A stretch of DNA of 63,919 nt, counting the filler, from Collodictyon triciliatum (taxonomy: Eukaryota), in assembly GCA_043381765.1 (NCBI GenBank). It is 5 parts of 5 records of this genome, joined end to end, with 100 filler letters (N's around TTAATTAATTAA, not from the genome) between each part and the next. Parts side by side here need not be neighbours in the genome. Positions count along the whole stretch, not along the records: positions 6,793 to 29,286 come from JBHJMP010000240.1; 4 more parts are not named here. One strand, 5' to 3'. The notes beneath the pieces were generated by a model. It was not told the origin of the DNA. It did no database searches and saw only the letters and a program-made list of their open reading frames with translations. The number at the start of each line of letters is the position of its first letter. Positions within the stretch are counted from its first letter, which is position 1. The position numbers were made by a program, and so were the translations under genes. Below, piece by piece: positions 3,800 through 12,731 of the stretch.

Positions 3800-6466
3800 T
3801 TAGACGCGCGGGATTGGCCCCGTTTTCTCCCAAACAAAGGAGAGGATTTGGTTTAAACGGTCCAGCAAAGAAGTGTCTGACGAAGTGACTCGCTGAAGAC
3901 ACAGTACACATATTATCATGATTGTTTTAAATTAATTTCATTAAAATATAAAACGCACACTTATATATGAACACATGATATACACACGGATGCGAAGGTG
4001 TAATTGGCTGCTGAAGAAATACGACGACTGCGCGAGACATACTTTGTTGCGCATGTCGATTTCAATGTCTGCTCCGTCGAAGCAGCCCCGCGCAAACCCG
4101 TCGGGAGTCACTTGCAGGTGGCCAAAGTACTCGGAGAGGATGCGGAGGAGAGGGACGAGGCTTTCGTCTGCCTCGGGCGCGTCTTTCTCCTCGGCGCATT
4201 CGCCCTGGACGTCGATGTGATGGTCGTTGTGATTGTGATTGTGATTGTGATGGTCGTCGTGATTGTGGGGCTCTTTGTGATGCTCGTGGCTGCAGGACGT
4301 TCGTGGGAAATCTGCGTTTCGTAGTGGCCTTTGTTTAATAGTAATAATAAAAAGAGTTGAGGGTGAAATAACTGGATAGATAAAAAGAAGAAGAATAATA
4401 ATAAAAAAAAGAAAGAATTAACGTGATGGGATGAATTCGAGTAACAATGACAATAAGTAATCCCTCGTCTGTGAAAAAGAAAAAAGAAAGAATGAATGCA
4501 GAGGAGGACGGGTTCGTGCGATTCAACAGTCGAGACACTTTTGTTGTGACTGTGTTTTTTATGGCGTGGAAAGAAGGATATCCCGAACGCACATTTGATG
4601 TTGTGTGGATTAGTCTCGATCTGCGTAATCAGCGTAATCAGAGAGTCGGCAAGCATGTCGCTCAGGGGATCCGTGTCCCAGCTCAACGAAACGCCGCCCT
4701 CTGTCTCGCTCACTTGAAGCAGCTCCTCGACCTATGGATTGGATGAATTGGTTTATATGCTCCTTTTTCTTTTTCATTTTTTTTTAATCGTCCATCAGGT
4801 TCATATCTTTTGGGGTGGAGTGGTTTCGTCTCCAGATTAACTGATTTGTTTACCACAAGGATGTTTGGATCGGACTCTCGCGAAACGGGGGAAAACATTT
4901 GTCGCACAAAGTATTCCAGGATATCGAAAGCATGCCGGTAAATGATGCGAACGGTTTGCTTGATGGTAACCACAGATAACTTTGTTTTTTGTTTTTTGTT
5001 TTTTGTTTTTTGAAAATAGAAAATAGAAAATAGAGAATAGAGAATAGAAAATAGAAAATAGAAAATAGAAAATAGAAAATAGAAAATAGAAAAGAAAATA
5101 GAAAAGAAAATAGAAAAGAAAATAGAAAAGAAAATAGAAAAGAAAATAGAAAAGAAAATAGAAAAGAAAATAGAAAAGAAAAAAGANNNNNNNNNNNNNN
5201 NNNNNNNNNNNNNNNNNNNNNNNNNNNNNNNNNNNNNNNNNNNNNNNNNNNNNNNNNNNNNNNNNNNNNNNNNNNNNNNNNNNNNNAAAAAAAAAAAAAA
5301 AGAAAAAAAAAAAGAAAAAGAAAAAGAAAAAGAAAAAGAAAAAGAAAAAGAAAAAGAAAAAGAAAAAGAAAAAGAAAAAGAAAAAAGAAAAAGAAAAAAG
5401 AAAAAGAAAAAAGAAAAAAGAAAAAAGAAAAAAGAAAAAAGAAAAAGAAAAAAGGAAAAGAAAAAAGAAAAATTTAATAGACAGTATAGCATCGATATTC
5501 TCATACCCGCGCGTATTTTTCCTTGTTAAAGTAGAGTGTTACAGTATCAACATTTTTTGGTGTATGGATATTTGGGTTGTATCTCCTTTCCTGCATGCCT
5601 TCAAACTTGCGCGTCAGTCCTTGCTTCAGGTCATCTGTCATCTTTGTGTCTCCATGAACTAAAACCTATAGCACGTATATGAGCCCATTCATGAACAGAA
5701 TCCGTGATAGATACGAAGAGTCCACGCATCTCGAAATGCACTTATTTCTTCTTTTTTCTTTTTTTAATCCTGAAAAAATATTTACTATGTGCGGCGGCCG
5801 AAGAATTGTCACAAATTTACTGGTGTCATCAAAATCGGCGTGAGCAGAGAAGGAGACATCCTCTACTTTCATTCGAAGAGGAACCTCGTGTCCGGAACTG
5901 GTGACAACTTTTGTTTGACGCAGCGTTGTAATTTGCTGTTCCATACGATTGATTTTAATGACATAAATTGCAAATGAAAAGTATGAGGGTGAGAAAGAAA
6001 ATAATATAATACATATATATGAATGAATAAATCTAAGCAGTGAGTTGATGGCATTCATTGGTAAGCACAAACATGTGCAAGGGTTCCTTTCACGCAGTAT
6101 CCAGGAACAATGACTCCGTTTCTTTCATCAGAACACCACTTGTCAAAAAGACGACGAGAAGGCCCATTCTATGATATGGTAATGGCTTCATTTACACTAA
6201 CTGTTTAGGACTGATGTTGGTAGGTGTTGGTTGGTTGAAATGATATTTCGATAATCATGGATAAAATAAAACAACAACCAAATTTTTAGAAATATTCTGA
6301 TGTCAATAAACTGAATTAATAATAGTAAAAAGAAAAGAAAAAGAAAAAGAAGAGAAGATTCACTTGTAGCATGCCTGGACTGGCCATCACAACACAAGGT
6401 TCGCTTTCATCAAGTTCCTCAATTTTGCGCAGGTTGCGAACGTATCGAAATTCGAAAGGGTTTTTT
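3800..6466 (-). CDS. CPSF3: Cleavage and polyadenylation specificity factor 73 kDa endonuclease (beta-CASP and C-terminal part; 5' half lost at scaffold join)
   Basis: Spliced exons give [20 protein letters not shown] / [32 protein letters not shown] / VSFSAHADF / VLVHGD / [14 protein letters not shown], diagnostic CPSF73/Ysh1 motifs. Stop at 3800-3802. Confidence 0.92.
5012..5470. repeat. Purine-rich (AGAAAAT)/(GAAAAA)n tract around an N gap
   Basis: Direct reading. Confidence 0.9.
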
Positions 6467-6577
6467 CTACACGCAAGTGATTTGGGGGTCATGAAGAAAT
6501 AATGTTAGAAAGAGAAAAAAAAAGATAATAAAGCCATACATGTGTATTCCATGGAGCGATGCTCTTTGTTTTGATAG

Positions 6578-7013: not shown

Positions 7014-8192
7014 TTATGATGGTTTTCGTGATGGCCTGCGTTCAAACGTGAGGCGGGACTCGTAGAATCTGATCACGAGCTGAGGGATCTTGTGGGAAAG
7101 CACACTTGATTTGTAAAACGTGATGGTTGGCGGGTCTCCCATGCTGGCGTGTGTGTGTGCGAGTGTGAGTGTGAAGCGTAAGGACGGGTGAGAATAAAGG
7201 GATTAGAGGGCTCGAACGAAAGGGCACAGAAGGTGGGTGGAATCAGAGGTCTTGGATGGATGGCGCATACCACTTGACGGCAAGATATACTTGTTCCTTA
7301 AACTTGAAGGCACCAAGCACTTCTACAGGCTCGCCTGGGAAGTCAAATTCGTCCTTGTGTATGAGTTTGTACAGAGTCAAGTCTGGATCGGCCGTCGGCT
7401 TTGGATGTGTGCTGCTTGCCTGCTCCGTGTTCGAATTGGTTTGATCGGCTAGTACAAGAGATGGCGATGATGATTAGGAAGAGTGTGAGTGATTGCGAGG
7501 GAGATACACACAGTAGGTAAAGCGTTTGAAATGTGGGAATGGTGGTTATAACTGGTGGCAGAGTCCGAGCCGAAATCCAATTGCCGCCTAGCTTTGTTGC
7601 GTCGCCTGGGTTCGTTGATGGAGGAGGACGATGCACCTTCTCGCTTGGCCTTGCGAGATGATGAGGATGATGCCTGATCTATCGAGCCACTGCTAAGTCT
7701 CTTGGTTTGTGATGGTGTCTGGTTGCTGGGTTTTGTCTTGGGAGAGCGCTTGGAGGATGCTGTTCTTGTTCTCTTTAAGTAATCCATGATAAGGAGCTCA
7801 CAGCCAATCAAGTTCCTTTCGTCTTCCCATGATGGCTCGTCATAGCCGACCCACTTGAGAAGATACTTCCAGCGACTCTGTAGTGTGTTGAGATCAAACA
7901 AATGTAACCAGACAGAAGAGGAGCAAGGGAAGGAAGAAAGAAAGTTTGGGATAACAAGAAGAGAAAGGAAAAGAAATGAAAAGAAAATCCTAGATGGCGA
8001 AGGTATTTTTTCTTCTCTCTGGGGCAGATCTCTTAGTCTTGTGATGTAAATCAAAAGTGAATGTGTCTTGTGAAGGGCTTTGGGATGCCCGGTGGCATAG
8101 ACTAGGGCGCTCAGCCTTCAGGGGAGGATTCCTACCTTTTCTTTCTTCCGATCAAGGATCGCCTCAACAGAGTAGATTTCTTTGCTCGACAT
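7014..8192 (-). CDS. HP1/Swi6-like chromodomain plus chromoshadow protein (4 exons)
   Basis: MSSKEIYSVEAILDRK|..YLLKWVGYDEPSWEDERNL (chromodomain), basic Ser-rich hinge, PVEVLGAF..YLAVK|..IPQLVIRFYESRLTF (chromoshadow). Stop at 7014-7016. Confidence 0.88.
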
Positions 8193-8958
8193 GTTCTACT
8201 TGCGTGAAGCTGCAGCTAGCATCTTTTTTTTTAGCTCTTCTTAGACACCTGACGGGACGCCCAAAAAAAAAGGCATCCAACACGTTCGGAGTCCACTCGC
8301 GCGGGCAGAAGTGAAGGGGCGCATGAATGCCAACACTGAAAGGAATCAGAAAACGCGATATGGCTTAATGTGAGCAGGTAAATAAAAAAAGGGGAATGAT
8401 TTGCAGACTGTGTTTATTTGCGTGTTTGATTGGTTCTGTGTCCACAGAATGTTCGAGCCCAGGCCAGAATTGTTGATATATTCTTTACCAATCAATGTGA
8501 ACAAACGTGTTGATCACAACGAGACAAAGTTAAAGAGAACAATATAAAAAAAAACACAATGATTAAAAAGTCTTTTGCTGAGAAACAAGCAAACTGAGAG
8601 AAAAAGGACACACCCCGGAAAATAATATTATTAAACTGGCTTTTTTTTTTCCTACTTCTCACAACACGCCACATTCTGAAGCCGGAAAAAAAAAACAAGA
8701 AACAAAGAAGCGATCGAAAAGACCGATCCCGAGAAGTACGAGACCGACGCCACGGCCCTGCCCCTTGGAATGCCTACTTAACGTACGCAAAATGAGAAGG
8801 CCGACGCAGCCAACGCAAAGAGCAAAAAGGTCACTCGGCCACATCCCTTGCAACACAGGTTATGCACCGAGACACACCGACGATCAAGACGCCAGCTGCC
8901 ACCGACCCGTGAGTACAACGACCTACTAACAAGACAAAGCGAGCTCTCTGAAACAAGT

Positions 8959-8959
<1 letters not shown>

Positions 8960-9053
<94 letters not shown>

Positions 9054-9058
9054 TAACA
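8960..9058. repeat. (AAT)n microsatellite
   Basis: Direct reading. Confidence 0.95.
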
Positions 9059-9211
9059 AAGGGTAATAAAAAAAGGCCTATCCAGCTCCAGCCACCGACC
9101 CACGGGCAACAAGATAATAATGATTATAGCGCTCGGTATTAGTTGCTCTGATTCATTCATTTCTTTTTTCTTTTCTTTTCTTTTCTTTTCTTTTTTCATA
9201 GGGTTTAGGTC

Positions 9212-12200
9212 TCATTCAGCCTGTAAATGGATAAACTTAATTACAAACGTTGTTACGAACTTGGTTTTATCCCTTTCAAGGACAATACATTTTATACAAC
9301 GAAAGTGTACCCATATAAATATATAGCAATTTATTGCACAGACAACCCTCGAATTAAATCTGGATTGACAAAAGCAGAAGCTTTGATGAACCCCAAAAAA
9401 GACCTGAATAATACAATAGTTTAATTAGTATATATAGTAAGGTTAAAAATACTAGATAATCTCATTCTATTCCTATAATCAATTTATATTTTATTGTTCA
9501 TTTATGTAATATTATAATTAAAATTCAAAGATTACAAACAAGTCCTTGCCTTGGCCCGGACAGAACCCACCCTATAAACCTGCCAACAAACATGCATTTC
9601 AAAAAAGCATACTATCCACACTTGCGGCGATAATCATGTTGTTTGGGGGCGATATATTGACTATCAATCACAACAGCTATACGGCCATCCTTTCGAACTC
9701 GCCGAATTGGCTCTCAGCGTTTTATCTGAAATCACTTATAAAAAAACGATGTGTGTTTGTTTGTCACAAAGCGCACACTTTGAGAGTCCCGGCAGATGCT
9801 CAATTTTACATAAATTGGTTATTTTTTTTTTTTTTTTATAGTTTTTGTATTTATAAAATTGACTAATTGAATGAAGTTTTATTAAAATTGAAAACTCGGT
9901 AGTTATCTAAAGGAAAAAGTAAAACGAAGACTTTCAGATGAAGAAAAGAAAACGTCTTGAGTCTGAGAATCTAAAGTCTGTAGAACCAGACTATCAAAAT
10001 GTGAAAACATCTCTTAAGTCGATGGTAAAGAATCCGGATGACTATTACAAAATCAACGATACGGTTTTATTGTGTCATAATTTGGTTACCGATACTTATC
10101 TGTTTACAAGATGCTACATATTTTTTTCCTTTATTCGATTCAACAAGATGTTACATATTGAAATCACAACTACTCCCAACAATCGATGAATTTTTTTTTT
10201 TTTGTACGCTTTAAAGACAGTCTGAATAGCTTCACAAGATAGACCCGCAAGTTTTTTAAAAAAAAAACAGAAATGAATAAAGACATGATGGCTTTCTATC
10301 TCTATGATTTTCGATTCCTTTTGTCCCAAGAAGAATGCTTTCTGTCGGTTAGATTGTCTCATGCACTACCGTACTTGGCGAAGCAAGTATTAACAGCTTA
10401 TCATAATAACATTAAGGAACATTCTGTAAAGAGGTTAATGCGCTTTATAAACCAGACAGTTCCTAAAGATGAGAATATGACGGAAGCTATTAAAAAGGCA
10501 GAGTTACGAAACTTAAAAAAAGCCATATTCAAGAATCTCGAAATACTGGAACAATATAAATAATGGGCTAAAATACATTTGAATCGTATCATTCCCAGCG
10601 ATATTGTAAATGGTATCGAATATGATATCAGAGCCAATCCAGATGAGTAAATTCCAAGTCTGATTTACGTGAATCGCATTTTTGAGGACATTGAACCAAA
10701 CTGCTTCAATCAATCCCTATAAGAACTAACAATATACCATGTCATATTACTCTAGATACCGCATGTTTGATAGATCTATTAGTATTATCTGGAAAATCAT
10801 TATTAAAGACTAATATATCAGGATGCAAAGATACTCTATGGGATGACTTCTTTGAAATGAAGAGGAGGGTCTTTCATCAAAGAGACTAGAATTTTAAATA
10901 CATGATACAAACAGTCGGCTTGGCGGTGTCATCGTTGTTTGAAAAGAAAGGTATTTCAAATTCAAAATCCAATTATAAACAAAAAACTCAAAGAATATGG
11001 TTATATAGGTGAACTTTCCAAAGAGCAGCTATCTTTATTAGCGACAAAAAATATGTTTGAGTGGACGCAGGCAAGTTTAATTTTGGTTTACATGGTGGAT
11101 GAGGCAGGTAAGAAATTACGTTACACGGCACGCCAAAGAAGACATGATGGCGAACCTCTTAAAATCACAAAATAATCTTGCACGAGAAAGAAAGTAAAGT
11201 ACAATGCTTCAGGGATATGCACAGCAACAGGTTTACAAAGTGCTGTTTCTTTTGTTCCCCTGACTTTTGAAGAGAATCAGCAGTTTGAGACATCAAGAGT
11301 ATCTTAAATCGATTTAGAGACAGAACTGAGTAAACATTATTCATGCACCGTCGATTATGAAAAATTCGAAAATGTGTATCTATGAAATCAAGATACCAGA
11401 TAGAATTATTCAGATTTTATGAACAAGTAACTTTTCGAAAGATGAGATGGAGACAGTATGTTAATACAAAAAGAAGTGAACAGTTGTTTATGGACTGAAT
11501 CGAAAAGACATTTGGCAAGGATGTTATAATGGTGTATGGAGACTGGAGCAGAAAATCTCAGATGAAATGTTTTATGCCATCAATCGGAAGAGGATTACGA
11601 AAAATACTATCCAAACGTTTTGAAACAGTTTGTGTAAATGAATTTAGAACCTCCAAGATGTGCTGCAACTGCGAAAAAGACTGGAACATATGAAGCCGAA
11701 AGGAACTCAAAAAAGGCGTATATAGATGTCTCACATGTGTATAGAATGCAATCACTCAGAAAGCAAACAAAGTGTATTCTTGACAAGGGACTTTAACAGC
11801 GCTAATGATATACTCAGCAAAGTTCTTCCAATCCTTCAAAAAAATTAATTAATCTTCCTCTAAAAAAATAGGCTGTCGGGTCAGTCCTGGCAGCCTTCAC
11901 TACTACACAAACTTTGTGAAAAAAAGTGGCGAGACATTGGATGCTAGCGCACCAAGTTTACCAATCTTTCGATTGGTATATCCCTTCTAATAGGCCAGTG
12001 TATAACAAAAAGAAAAAGAAAAGAAGTAGAGAAGAAAAAAGCCTACTACTCGTGTTAGTTGTAAATAACTATCTACTCAGTGATTTCAGGTGTAACCAAT
12101 ACATTTTGTTTCTTTTAATGGTTTTTCTTTATACATAGATTATCATCCATGTCGACATCTGTCTTAACCTTAACACGTTGTACATGACACAGCCTGCACG

Positions 12201-12731
12201 AGGACTTATTAGAACGGAAGAAAGCAGGCTTGAACAGCAACTATTCAACCATCTTATTCATCCGTTCACACAAAATTGAATATCGCTATGATAAAATATC
12301 AAACAAACATAAAATAACTAGACTCGTACCTTCAAAAGACAAAGACGGCAGGATATATATCAATATCTCTCAATATCGGAAAAGAGAAAAGAAAAGAAAA
12401 GCGAGGACTAAAATGCCGTCGAAATACGGTGCCTGAGTCTGGCCGATAAGACCACCAGACAAATCCAAGGACAGATAACAACGCAGGCTCCACAGGATAG
12501 AATATGCAAGACCTTCTCGACGTGGCATGGCGAGTCAGGCGCAACCCGTCGGCGTGAAATGCGTGTGTGTGCGTGGTCGCCGGGTGCTTGTTTGCTGGTC
12601 TCCGGCGGAATGTGGAGCATCGATCCCTTATGTGGAACAGCGCCCGGTTCACAAGACGCTTTGCCACCCGATACCCAATAGGAAACAAACCAATTAGGAT
12701 AATCCTGAAAAGGGAAAAATTGCTCCTCCAC
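9212..12731 (-). CDS. Putative ~130-aa MATH/TRAF-like protein; 8 small exons spanning the Fanzor element
   Basis: Phase-consistent GT-AG exons 12731-12691, 12512-12428, 12240-12169, 9798-9779, 9710-9683, 9571-9540, 9403-9347, 9272-9212 give MEEQFFPFQDYPNWSCIFYPVEPALLSVL...GGFCPGQGKDLSFLGFIKASAFVNPDLIRGDKTKFVTTFVIKFIHLQAE*. W-x3-YP and F-x2-FI resemble MATH motifs. Exons 4-5 have weak GAG acceptors. Confidence 0.4.
9855..9891 (+). promoter_or_regulatory. Two AAAATTGA motifs (Mimiviridae early-promoter consensus) just upstream of Fanzor
   Basis: AAAATTGA at 9855-9862 and 9884-9891, ~45-85 bp before the first in-frame ATG. The motif is AT-rich and also occurs elsewhere in the window. Confidence 0.35.
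9938..11848 (+). pseudogene. Fanzor1 (eukaryotic TnpB-family RNA-guided endonuclease), decayed by stops and frameshifts
   Basis: Across frameshifts: VKTSLKSMVKN..INDTVLLCHNLVTDTYLFTRCY; LPYLAKQVLTAYHNNIKEHSVKRLMRFIN; RTNNIPCHITLDT; YMIQTVGLAVSSLF; RuvC-I VDAGK (D 11064); FRKMRWRQYVNTKRSE; YGDWS..MPSIGRGLRKILSKRF; RuvC-II VNEFRTSKMCCNC (E 11640); CIEC; RuvC-III TRDFNSA (D 11789). Confidence 0.9.
11860..12000 (+). ncRNA. Candidate Fanzor omega-RNA (fRNA) scaffold
   Basis: Four tandem hairpins directly after the Fanzor stop: 11870-11896, 11898-11928, 11937-11955 and 11959-11978 (perfect TACCAATC-tttc-GATTGGTA). Confidence 0.6.

Follow-up and report, generated by a model that had tools for sequence, protein, structure and literature searches.

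The guide RNAs described for Fanzor1 nucleases combine a scaffold encoded at the right end of the element with 14-15 nt of flank (PMC10432273), and the Fanzor1 RNA has been described as three stems, the last of which contains the element end and the TSD (PMC10711439). Total lengths of 75-150 nt are reported for Fanzor1 omega-RNAs, or reRNAs, in the portions of these accounts available to us (PMC10432273, PMC11423790, PMC10711439). Fanzor1 genes have also been published inside Helitron2 elements, namely CRe-1,2,3, for which the available part of the source gives a 3' hairpin and variable TSDs of 7-19 bp (PMC3627910).

The window analysed here, a 63,919-nt stretch joined from five records of the Collodictyon triciliatum assembly GCA_043381765.1, contains a Fanzor1 element of about 3.6 kb that is represented by hundreds of copies in the genome (Table 1). 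The run of hairpins at the right end of this element is a real feature and probably the guide-RNA scaffold of an extinct Fanzor1 family; we favour, with good but incomplete confidence, its interpretation as an ancestral Fanzor1 omega-RNA (fRNA) scaffold that is now a fossil. Upstream of the element, on the minus strand at 7449-8117 and 5666-6504, lie what we take to be pieces of host genes, a chromodomain-like exon and exons like those of the CPSF73/Integrator-11 beta-CASP nuclease.

Table 1 Features of the Fanzor1 element and its right end, in positions of the window.
Feature	Position	Strand	Description
Decayed repeat copy (~3.6 kb), TIR-less and carrying Fanzor1	8400..11991	+	Copies align from ~8400-8475 to 11992; flanks differ between copies
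Element 5' part with internal microsatellites	8400..9920	+	Common to copies; no family match
Fanzor1 pseudogene, many stops and frameshifts	9938..11919	+	Alignment to P0001 spans 9938-11839, split into 5 segments over 3 frames and containing stops
Stem-loop 1	11870..11896	+	11 bp, two G-U pairs; overlaps last codons of family frame
Stem-loop 2	11897..11932	+	8-bp outer stem, A-rich bulge, 5-bp inner stem
Likely terminal stem, enclosing hairpin 4	11942..11992	+	Family TACTAG (11942-47) with CTAGTA (11987-92)
Hairpin 4	11959..11978	+	Perfect 8-bp palindrome, 8 nt before CTAG
Copy-specific flank, predicted guide position (~15 nt)	11993..12007	+	Conservation drops after CTAG-T-A; length by analogy with the available accounts in PMC10432273 and PMC10711439
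~48-nt 3' extension	11997..12044	+	Common only to the window copy and G000 C6382 and C8004; 3/3 matches

The left end of the element is fuzzy and lies close to a TTTGCAG motif and a (GTTT)n tract. The right end is sharp at CTAG/T (CTAA/T in the window copy), with T at position +0 in 89% and A at position +1 in 63% of 99 copies before the sequence becomes variable. A search of the same genome with 11700-12060 returned 338 candidates, and the 40 that were scored had 82-87% identity, most of them ending near 11992. Eighty-seven copies lay 5.6-10.1% from the family majority and the closest pair 6.3% apart; judging by these distances the Fanzor1 family is old, was amplified long ago and has no young copies among the 87 compared. 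The two copies that share the 3' extension with the window copy are mutually close (6.3%), the body of the window copy being no closer to either. Three internally deleted copies (L257, L263 and L265) of 1.3-1.7 kb kept both ends. Two others, L015 and L145, have similar 5' sequence and then both pick up again at 11161, and in L032, L122 and L162 the same other repeat is joined at the same position of the element 5' part (window ~9439). When this 5' part (8400-9920) was compared in seven frames with Pfam, nothing better than E 0.09 was returned; at window 8582-8960 several copies have frames open for 100-150 codons, also without a Pfam match, which possibly represent an exon that was captured or a small second gene. 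A description of the family was not found in the literature searched; Repbase lay outside that search and may catalogue it.

The coding part of the family belongs to Fanzor1 by its RuvC D-E-D triad, C4 zinc finger, TDG motif and kinship to solved Fz1 proteins. Remnants of these persist in the frames of the window, with the RuvC-I Asp codon of this copy at 11064-66, the RuvC-II Glu codon at 11640-42 and the RuvC-III Asp codon at 11789-91. The fragment of one family copy matched PpFz1 (E 1e-4) and SpuFz1 (E 9e-4). Weak matches of one fragment to a binary-toxin domain were set aside as noise (E 0.013 in Pfam, which missed the cut-off, and at least 0.11 in PDB). P0001, a protein of 648 aa that is 59% identical to the family, gave matches to GtFz1, PpFz1 and SpuFz1 with E between 2e-28 and 4e-23 and, with P0013, also from ENA/JGI metagenome contigs of 2.6 kb, apparently represents an intact 648-aa Fanzor1. 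In most copies, by 39 of the 54 matches listed, the RuvC-I motif (window 11061-11072) is DAG, while DPG is found in P0001 and other relatives. Metagenome scans for the DNA of the P0001 relative gave, respectively, none and two distant loci, and scans of viral sequences, with P0001 and with two scaffold patterns as queries, returned no DNA of the intact relative. The window copy is riddled with stops and frameshifts, and none of the candidates scored in this genome had an intact ORF: the longest open frame among the best 150 of 405 candidates spanned 318 aa, and intact relatives used as queries gave no full-length stop-free match among the 68 of 1130 and the 71 of 1033 candidates scored, from which, because the assembly is fragmented (14,576 contigs), the absence of an intact Fanzor is not proven.

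Across the 99 copies the hairpin stretch occupies the interval from the 3' end of the ORF to the right end of the element and is followed by variable flank. The initial annotation had placed the stop about 20 nt upstream of the hairpins. That is accurate for the window copy, in which TAA at 11846-48 lies 21 nt upstream and in our reading reflects decay of this copy, but not for the family, whose frame (column majority of 66 copies) enters the hairpins, reading through hairpin 1 to TGA at 11917-19 inside hairpin 2. A T allele at 11869, carried by 30 of the 99 copies, creates TAG at 11869-71, a stop at the start of hairpin 1. Among the 59 of 99 copies in which the frame could be anchored, it ended earlier in 17, in hairpin 1 in 8, in hairpin 2 in 11 and elsewhere in 23. 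P0001 and P0013 have the same C-terminal frame as the family, P0001 continuing in the read-through frame, and at the protein level the C-terminal residues of P0001 would be compatible with the stems.

All four hairpin strings are present at the positions originally given for them, and comparison with shuffled controls bore out their stability. The segment 11865-11995 folds at -45 kcal/mol with none of 200 shuffles as low (z -5.18) and its minus strand reaches z -2.56, RNA folding of the wider 11850-12010 giving z -3.83; these scores are somewhat flattering because the region was picked after the fact. In 40 of the 99 copies the mean fold z was -2.9, compared with +0.05 for ORF windows of equal length, and the plus strand was lower in energy than the minus strand in 82.5% of the 40. 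The right end thus has the stable plus-strand fold of several stems that a scaffold calls for.

Hairpins 1 and 4 hold as originally drawn, with 93.9% of cells paired in stem-loop 1 over the 99 copies, but the register of hairpin 2 and the inner stem of hairpin 3 are peculiar to the window copy. The CACT/AGTG register of hairpin 2 needs a copy-specific T at 11901, and the pair concerned is formed in 6% of the 99 copies; the stem of the family has 8 bp, joining 11897-11904 with 11925-11932. The inner G-C pair 11943:11950 of hairpin 3 is present in only 3 of 99 copies. A terminal stem, which would bring the number of stems to three, is likelier than that hairpin. Its pairs are formed in 71-89% of 95 copies, it lies below a free tail in energy in 43 of 64 copies by a mean margin of only 0.2 kcal/mol, and it is the MFE structure in three hand-picked copies; in the window copy one of its pairs is broken. 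We also considered a fixed guide seed of 12 nt following hairpin 4, but set it aside since the tail is able to pair with 11942-47 and is without a second genomic source. The loop of hairpin 4 (window 11967-11970) is inverted between copies, reading GAAA in 66 and TTTC in 32 of 99, and inversion of a palindrome loop is a DNA-level event. One T of the 3' arm of this hairpin is missing in about a third of copies. Variant sites showed no linkage of note across stems (11955 against the tail, p = 0.81), and an Rfam scan of 11500-12300 gave two chance matches only (E 4.6 and 8.9).

The hairpins had been described as better preserved than the ORF. The reverse was observed, copies diverging by 9.7% at hairpin sites and 7.3-7.6% at ORF sites, and the window copy itself differing at 12 of 111 hairpin sites, compared with 6.4-7.8% in the ORF; the contrast was only apparent, because a stem can absorb substitutions, whereas a handful of indels is enough to destroy a frame. 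Compensatory changes, which the initial annotation had proposed as a check, did not emerge across family copies, where 11 pairs with two-sided covariation compare with 12.1 in shuffles, as expected for neutral decay, and RNAalifold returned no consensus structure for the 99 copies. At Watson-Crick pairs of stems 1-3, transitions leaving G-U outnumbered those leaving a mismatch (214 vs 106; 168 vs 106 without one CpG site, where 102 vs 106 were expected; per site p = 0.08), an excess that rests on a few shared variants.

Relatives on viral contigs were examined through the best 80 of 335 Fanzor1 loci (IMG/VR, L174-L253), of which 40 distinct 3' regions of up to 200 nt were aligned. Common to these regions are a bulged stem and a terminal stem that closes at the right TIR, and they covary, with 66 doubly changed cells compared with 21.7 in shuffles (0 of 500 as high), a figure inflated by related sequences. 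In the giant-virus alignment (A2) the last stem is an internal copy of the TIR paired with the right TIR. The viral covariance model (R1) had no match with E up to 10 at 11870-11992, whether in the window or in 20 family loci searched on the element strand. In positional resemblance to the viral regions, the family majority was equalled by 6 of 300 shuffles and the window copy by 56 of 300, which weakly supports homology of the family region to the covarying viral stems.

That the hairpins are an fRNA scaffold, as the initial annotation proposed, is the best-supported account of them: position, fold, sharp boundary and plus-strand bias all agree with it, as do the covarying stems at the same place in the viral relatives; family covariation and a match to the viral model are the parts that did not materialise. 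In an active ancestor, a plus-strand transcript would have run over the last codons, the element end and about 15 nt of flank, and would have folded into three stems, namely stem-loops 1 and 2 and the terminal stem enclosing hairpin 4, in a register and with a guide start that we infer. The folded RNA would then have been loaded onto the Fanzor1 nuclease and, by analogy with characterised systems, the flank may have served as a guide against element-free sites. The window copy, its scaffold included, has since decayed neutrally and is very probably inert today.

We think it unlikely that the hairpins lack an RNA role and are only a DNA-level structure of a transposon end or a chance self-complementarity of the last codons. 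Such an origin would suit the lack of covariation within the family, the lack of a match to Rfam or to the viral model and the inverted loop of hairpin 4, a phenomenon of DNA palindromes, and hairpin 4 with CTAG/T reads equally well as a DNA signal. It accords poorly with the G-U pairs of stem 1 and the plus-strand wobble excess, with the position, frame and motif shared with covarying stems in relatives, and with the occurrence of such an RNA at this very place in characterised Fanzor1s, as far as the available portions of their descriptions go. It is highly improbable that selection maintains the scaffold and that it functions in trans with an intact Fanzor located elsewhere in the genome, in the manner of the S. 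punctatus ghost loci. The fold does survive in the window copy, SpuFz1 ghost omega-RNAs are functional according to the available part of PMC10432273, and an intact copy could be missing from an assembly of so many contigs. However, the hairpin region diverges as fast as the ORF or faster, so that a scaffold conserved above background beside an intact Fanzor in the same genome, the mark of a ghost locus, was not observed; no intact Fanzor occurs among the candidates scored and no young copy among the 87. Action in trans, which had also been suggested initially, is left unsupported since no intact Fanzor was found among the candidates scored; the broken pair in the terminal stem of the window copy also speaks against it.

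A possible but doubtful addition to the scaffold, with which it is compatible as a dual use, is that the right end is also a Helitron-type terminator, hairpin 4 and CTAG/T forming a rolling-circle signal read on single-stranded DNA by RepHel in trans and stems 1 and 2 being the RNA scaffold. The 3' end does show the subterminal hairpin, CTRR end and following T of Helitron1, with the hairpin 8 nt before CTAG and the T in 89% of 99 copies, and is Helitron1-like by the available part of PMC3627910, the source of the Helitron2-borne Fanzor1s. TIRs are lacking, the best matches being 11-14 of 22 in 22 two-ended copies, in which TIRs bounded by TA, as in Tc1/mariner-type elements, were likewise not found. 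Candidates are more numerous at the 3' end (at least 338-405) than at the far 5' end (at least 149-168), both counts being lower bounds as contigs break inside the element. The 3' extension is common to three copies, and a Helitron Rep open frame of 1194 aa is present in the genome (L101/L104, G000 C6377). Yet there is no sharp A/TC left end, conservation running about 60 nt upstream of the sole TC candidate; the CTAG tail was not found outside the family, where 7 matches compare with 17 in the control; no end in common with the Fanzor element was seen on the Rep contig; some copies have duplications of 9-12 bp (for example 11/12 in L258); and the terminal RNA stem also accounts for the CTAG. 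None of the three Helitron_like_N matches in the genome had a shared end in the stretches read.

TSDs were evaluated by permuting own against other flanks, which gave p = 0.057 (15 copies, three false anchors left out), 0.11 (21 copies) and 0.23 (8 copies); further flank permutations, with one copy preceded by a pure microsatellite left out, gave p = 0.13 (18 copies) and 0.09 (23 copies). A search for empty sites found none. In 30 of 106 copies AATAAA lies among the first 20 nt beyond the element end, compared with 8.0 +/- 2.5 in composition-matched shuffles, and ATAAA starts at +2 to +9; the window copy is without the exact motif. This enrichment is an unexplained target preference, with insertion perhaps occurring a variable 2-9 nt upstream of (A)ATAAA. 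Read from the other strand, the motif resembles the TTA/TTTA TAMs known from other Fanzors. Possibly the motif marks a route of integration in which Fanzor cutting or TAM binding and a HUH transposase acting in trans would set the site and leave variable TSDs; Craig tentatively proposed such a route for Chlamydomonas Helitrons, in the available part of that work (PMC10288648). The combined picture, a TIR-less Fanzor1 family whose right end is at once the terminal stem of an RNA and a Helitron-type terminator and which inserts upstream of (A)ATAAA, is a speculative one and, we believe, quite improbable as a whole.

The relic itself matters little, as Fanzor1 scaffolds at element ends are already known and the window copy is dead. 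The value of the family lies in its roughly 100 aligned copies, which fix the scaffold boundary and the probable three-stem fold, a template for the guide RNA of the compact and apparently intact P0001/P0013, the best candidate for a functional nuclease test. The target motif and the TIR-less ends bear modestly on what Fanzors do for their carrier elements, and a living relative such as P0001 would make the dual-use and integration-route reading testable.

Like SpuFz1, GtFz1, PpFz1 and the SfAV Fanzor1, in so far as the available parts of their descriptions extend, the Collodictyon family has a structured right end that overlaps or abuts the end of the ORF and is followed by variable flank, and its scaffold of about 120 nt falls within the reported lengths and has three stems, with the terminal bases taking part in one of them. 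Unlike in those systems, the last stem is not made by a TIR, every copy examined is dead and RuvC-I is mostly DAG, not DPG; the scaffold here, in contrast to characterised Fanzor1 RNAs, is a predicted one. The giant-virus Fanzor1 loci, with 37-47% identity to P0001, have ORFs that likewise run into stems, a bulged stem TTCACC...AAAAAGT...AGACC with motif-level likeness to stem-loop 2 of the family, and a last stem that closes with TAC...GTA, as the family terminal stem does. They differ in their TA-bounded TIRs (left TIR in 24 of 36, with 20-22 of 22 matches), whereas the Collodictyon family is without TIR. Fragments of ATIR, Crypton or Harbinger elements were not found. Set against the MCi and CRe families, as given in the available part of PMC3627910, the family ends in CTAG/T, which is Helitron1-like and not Helitron2-like, and its TSD tests stand at p 0.06-0.23. 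It nonetheless resembles MCi-2 and MCi-5 of Mucor and CRe-1,2,3 of Chlamydomonas in having no TIR, a conserved 3' end, a fuzzy or truncated 5' end and an AT-rich target pattern (Bao and Jurka 2013, PMC3627910).
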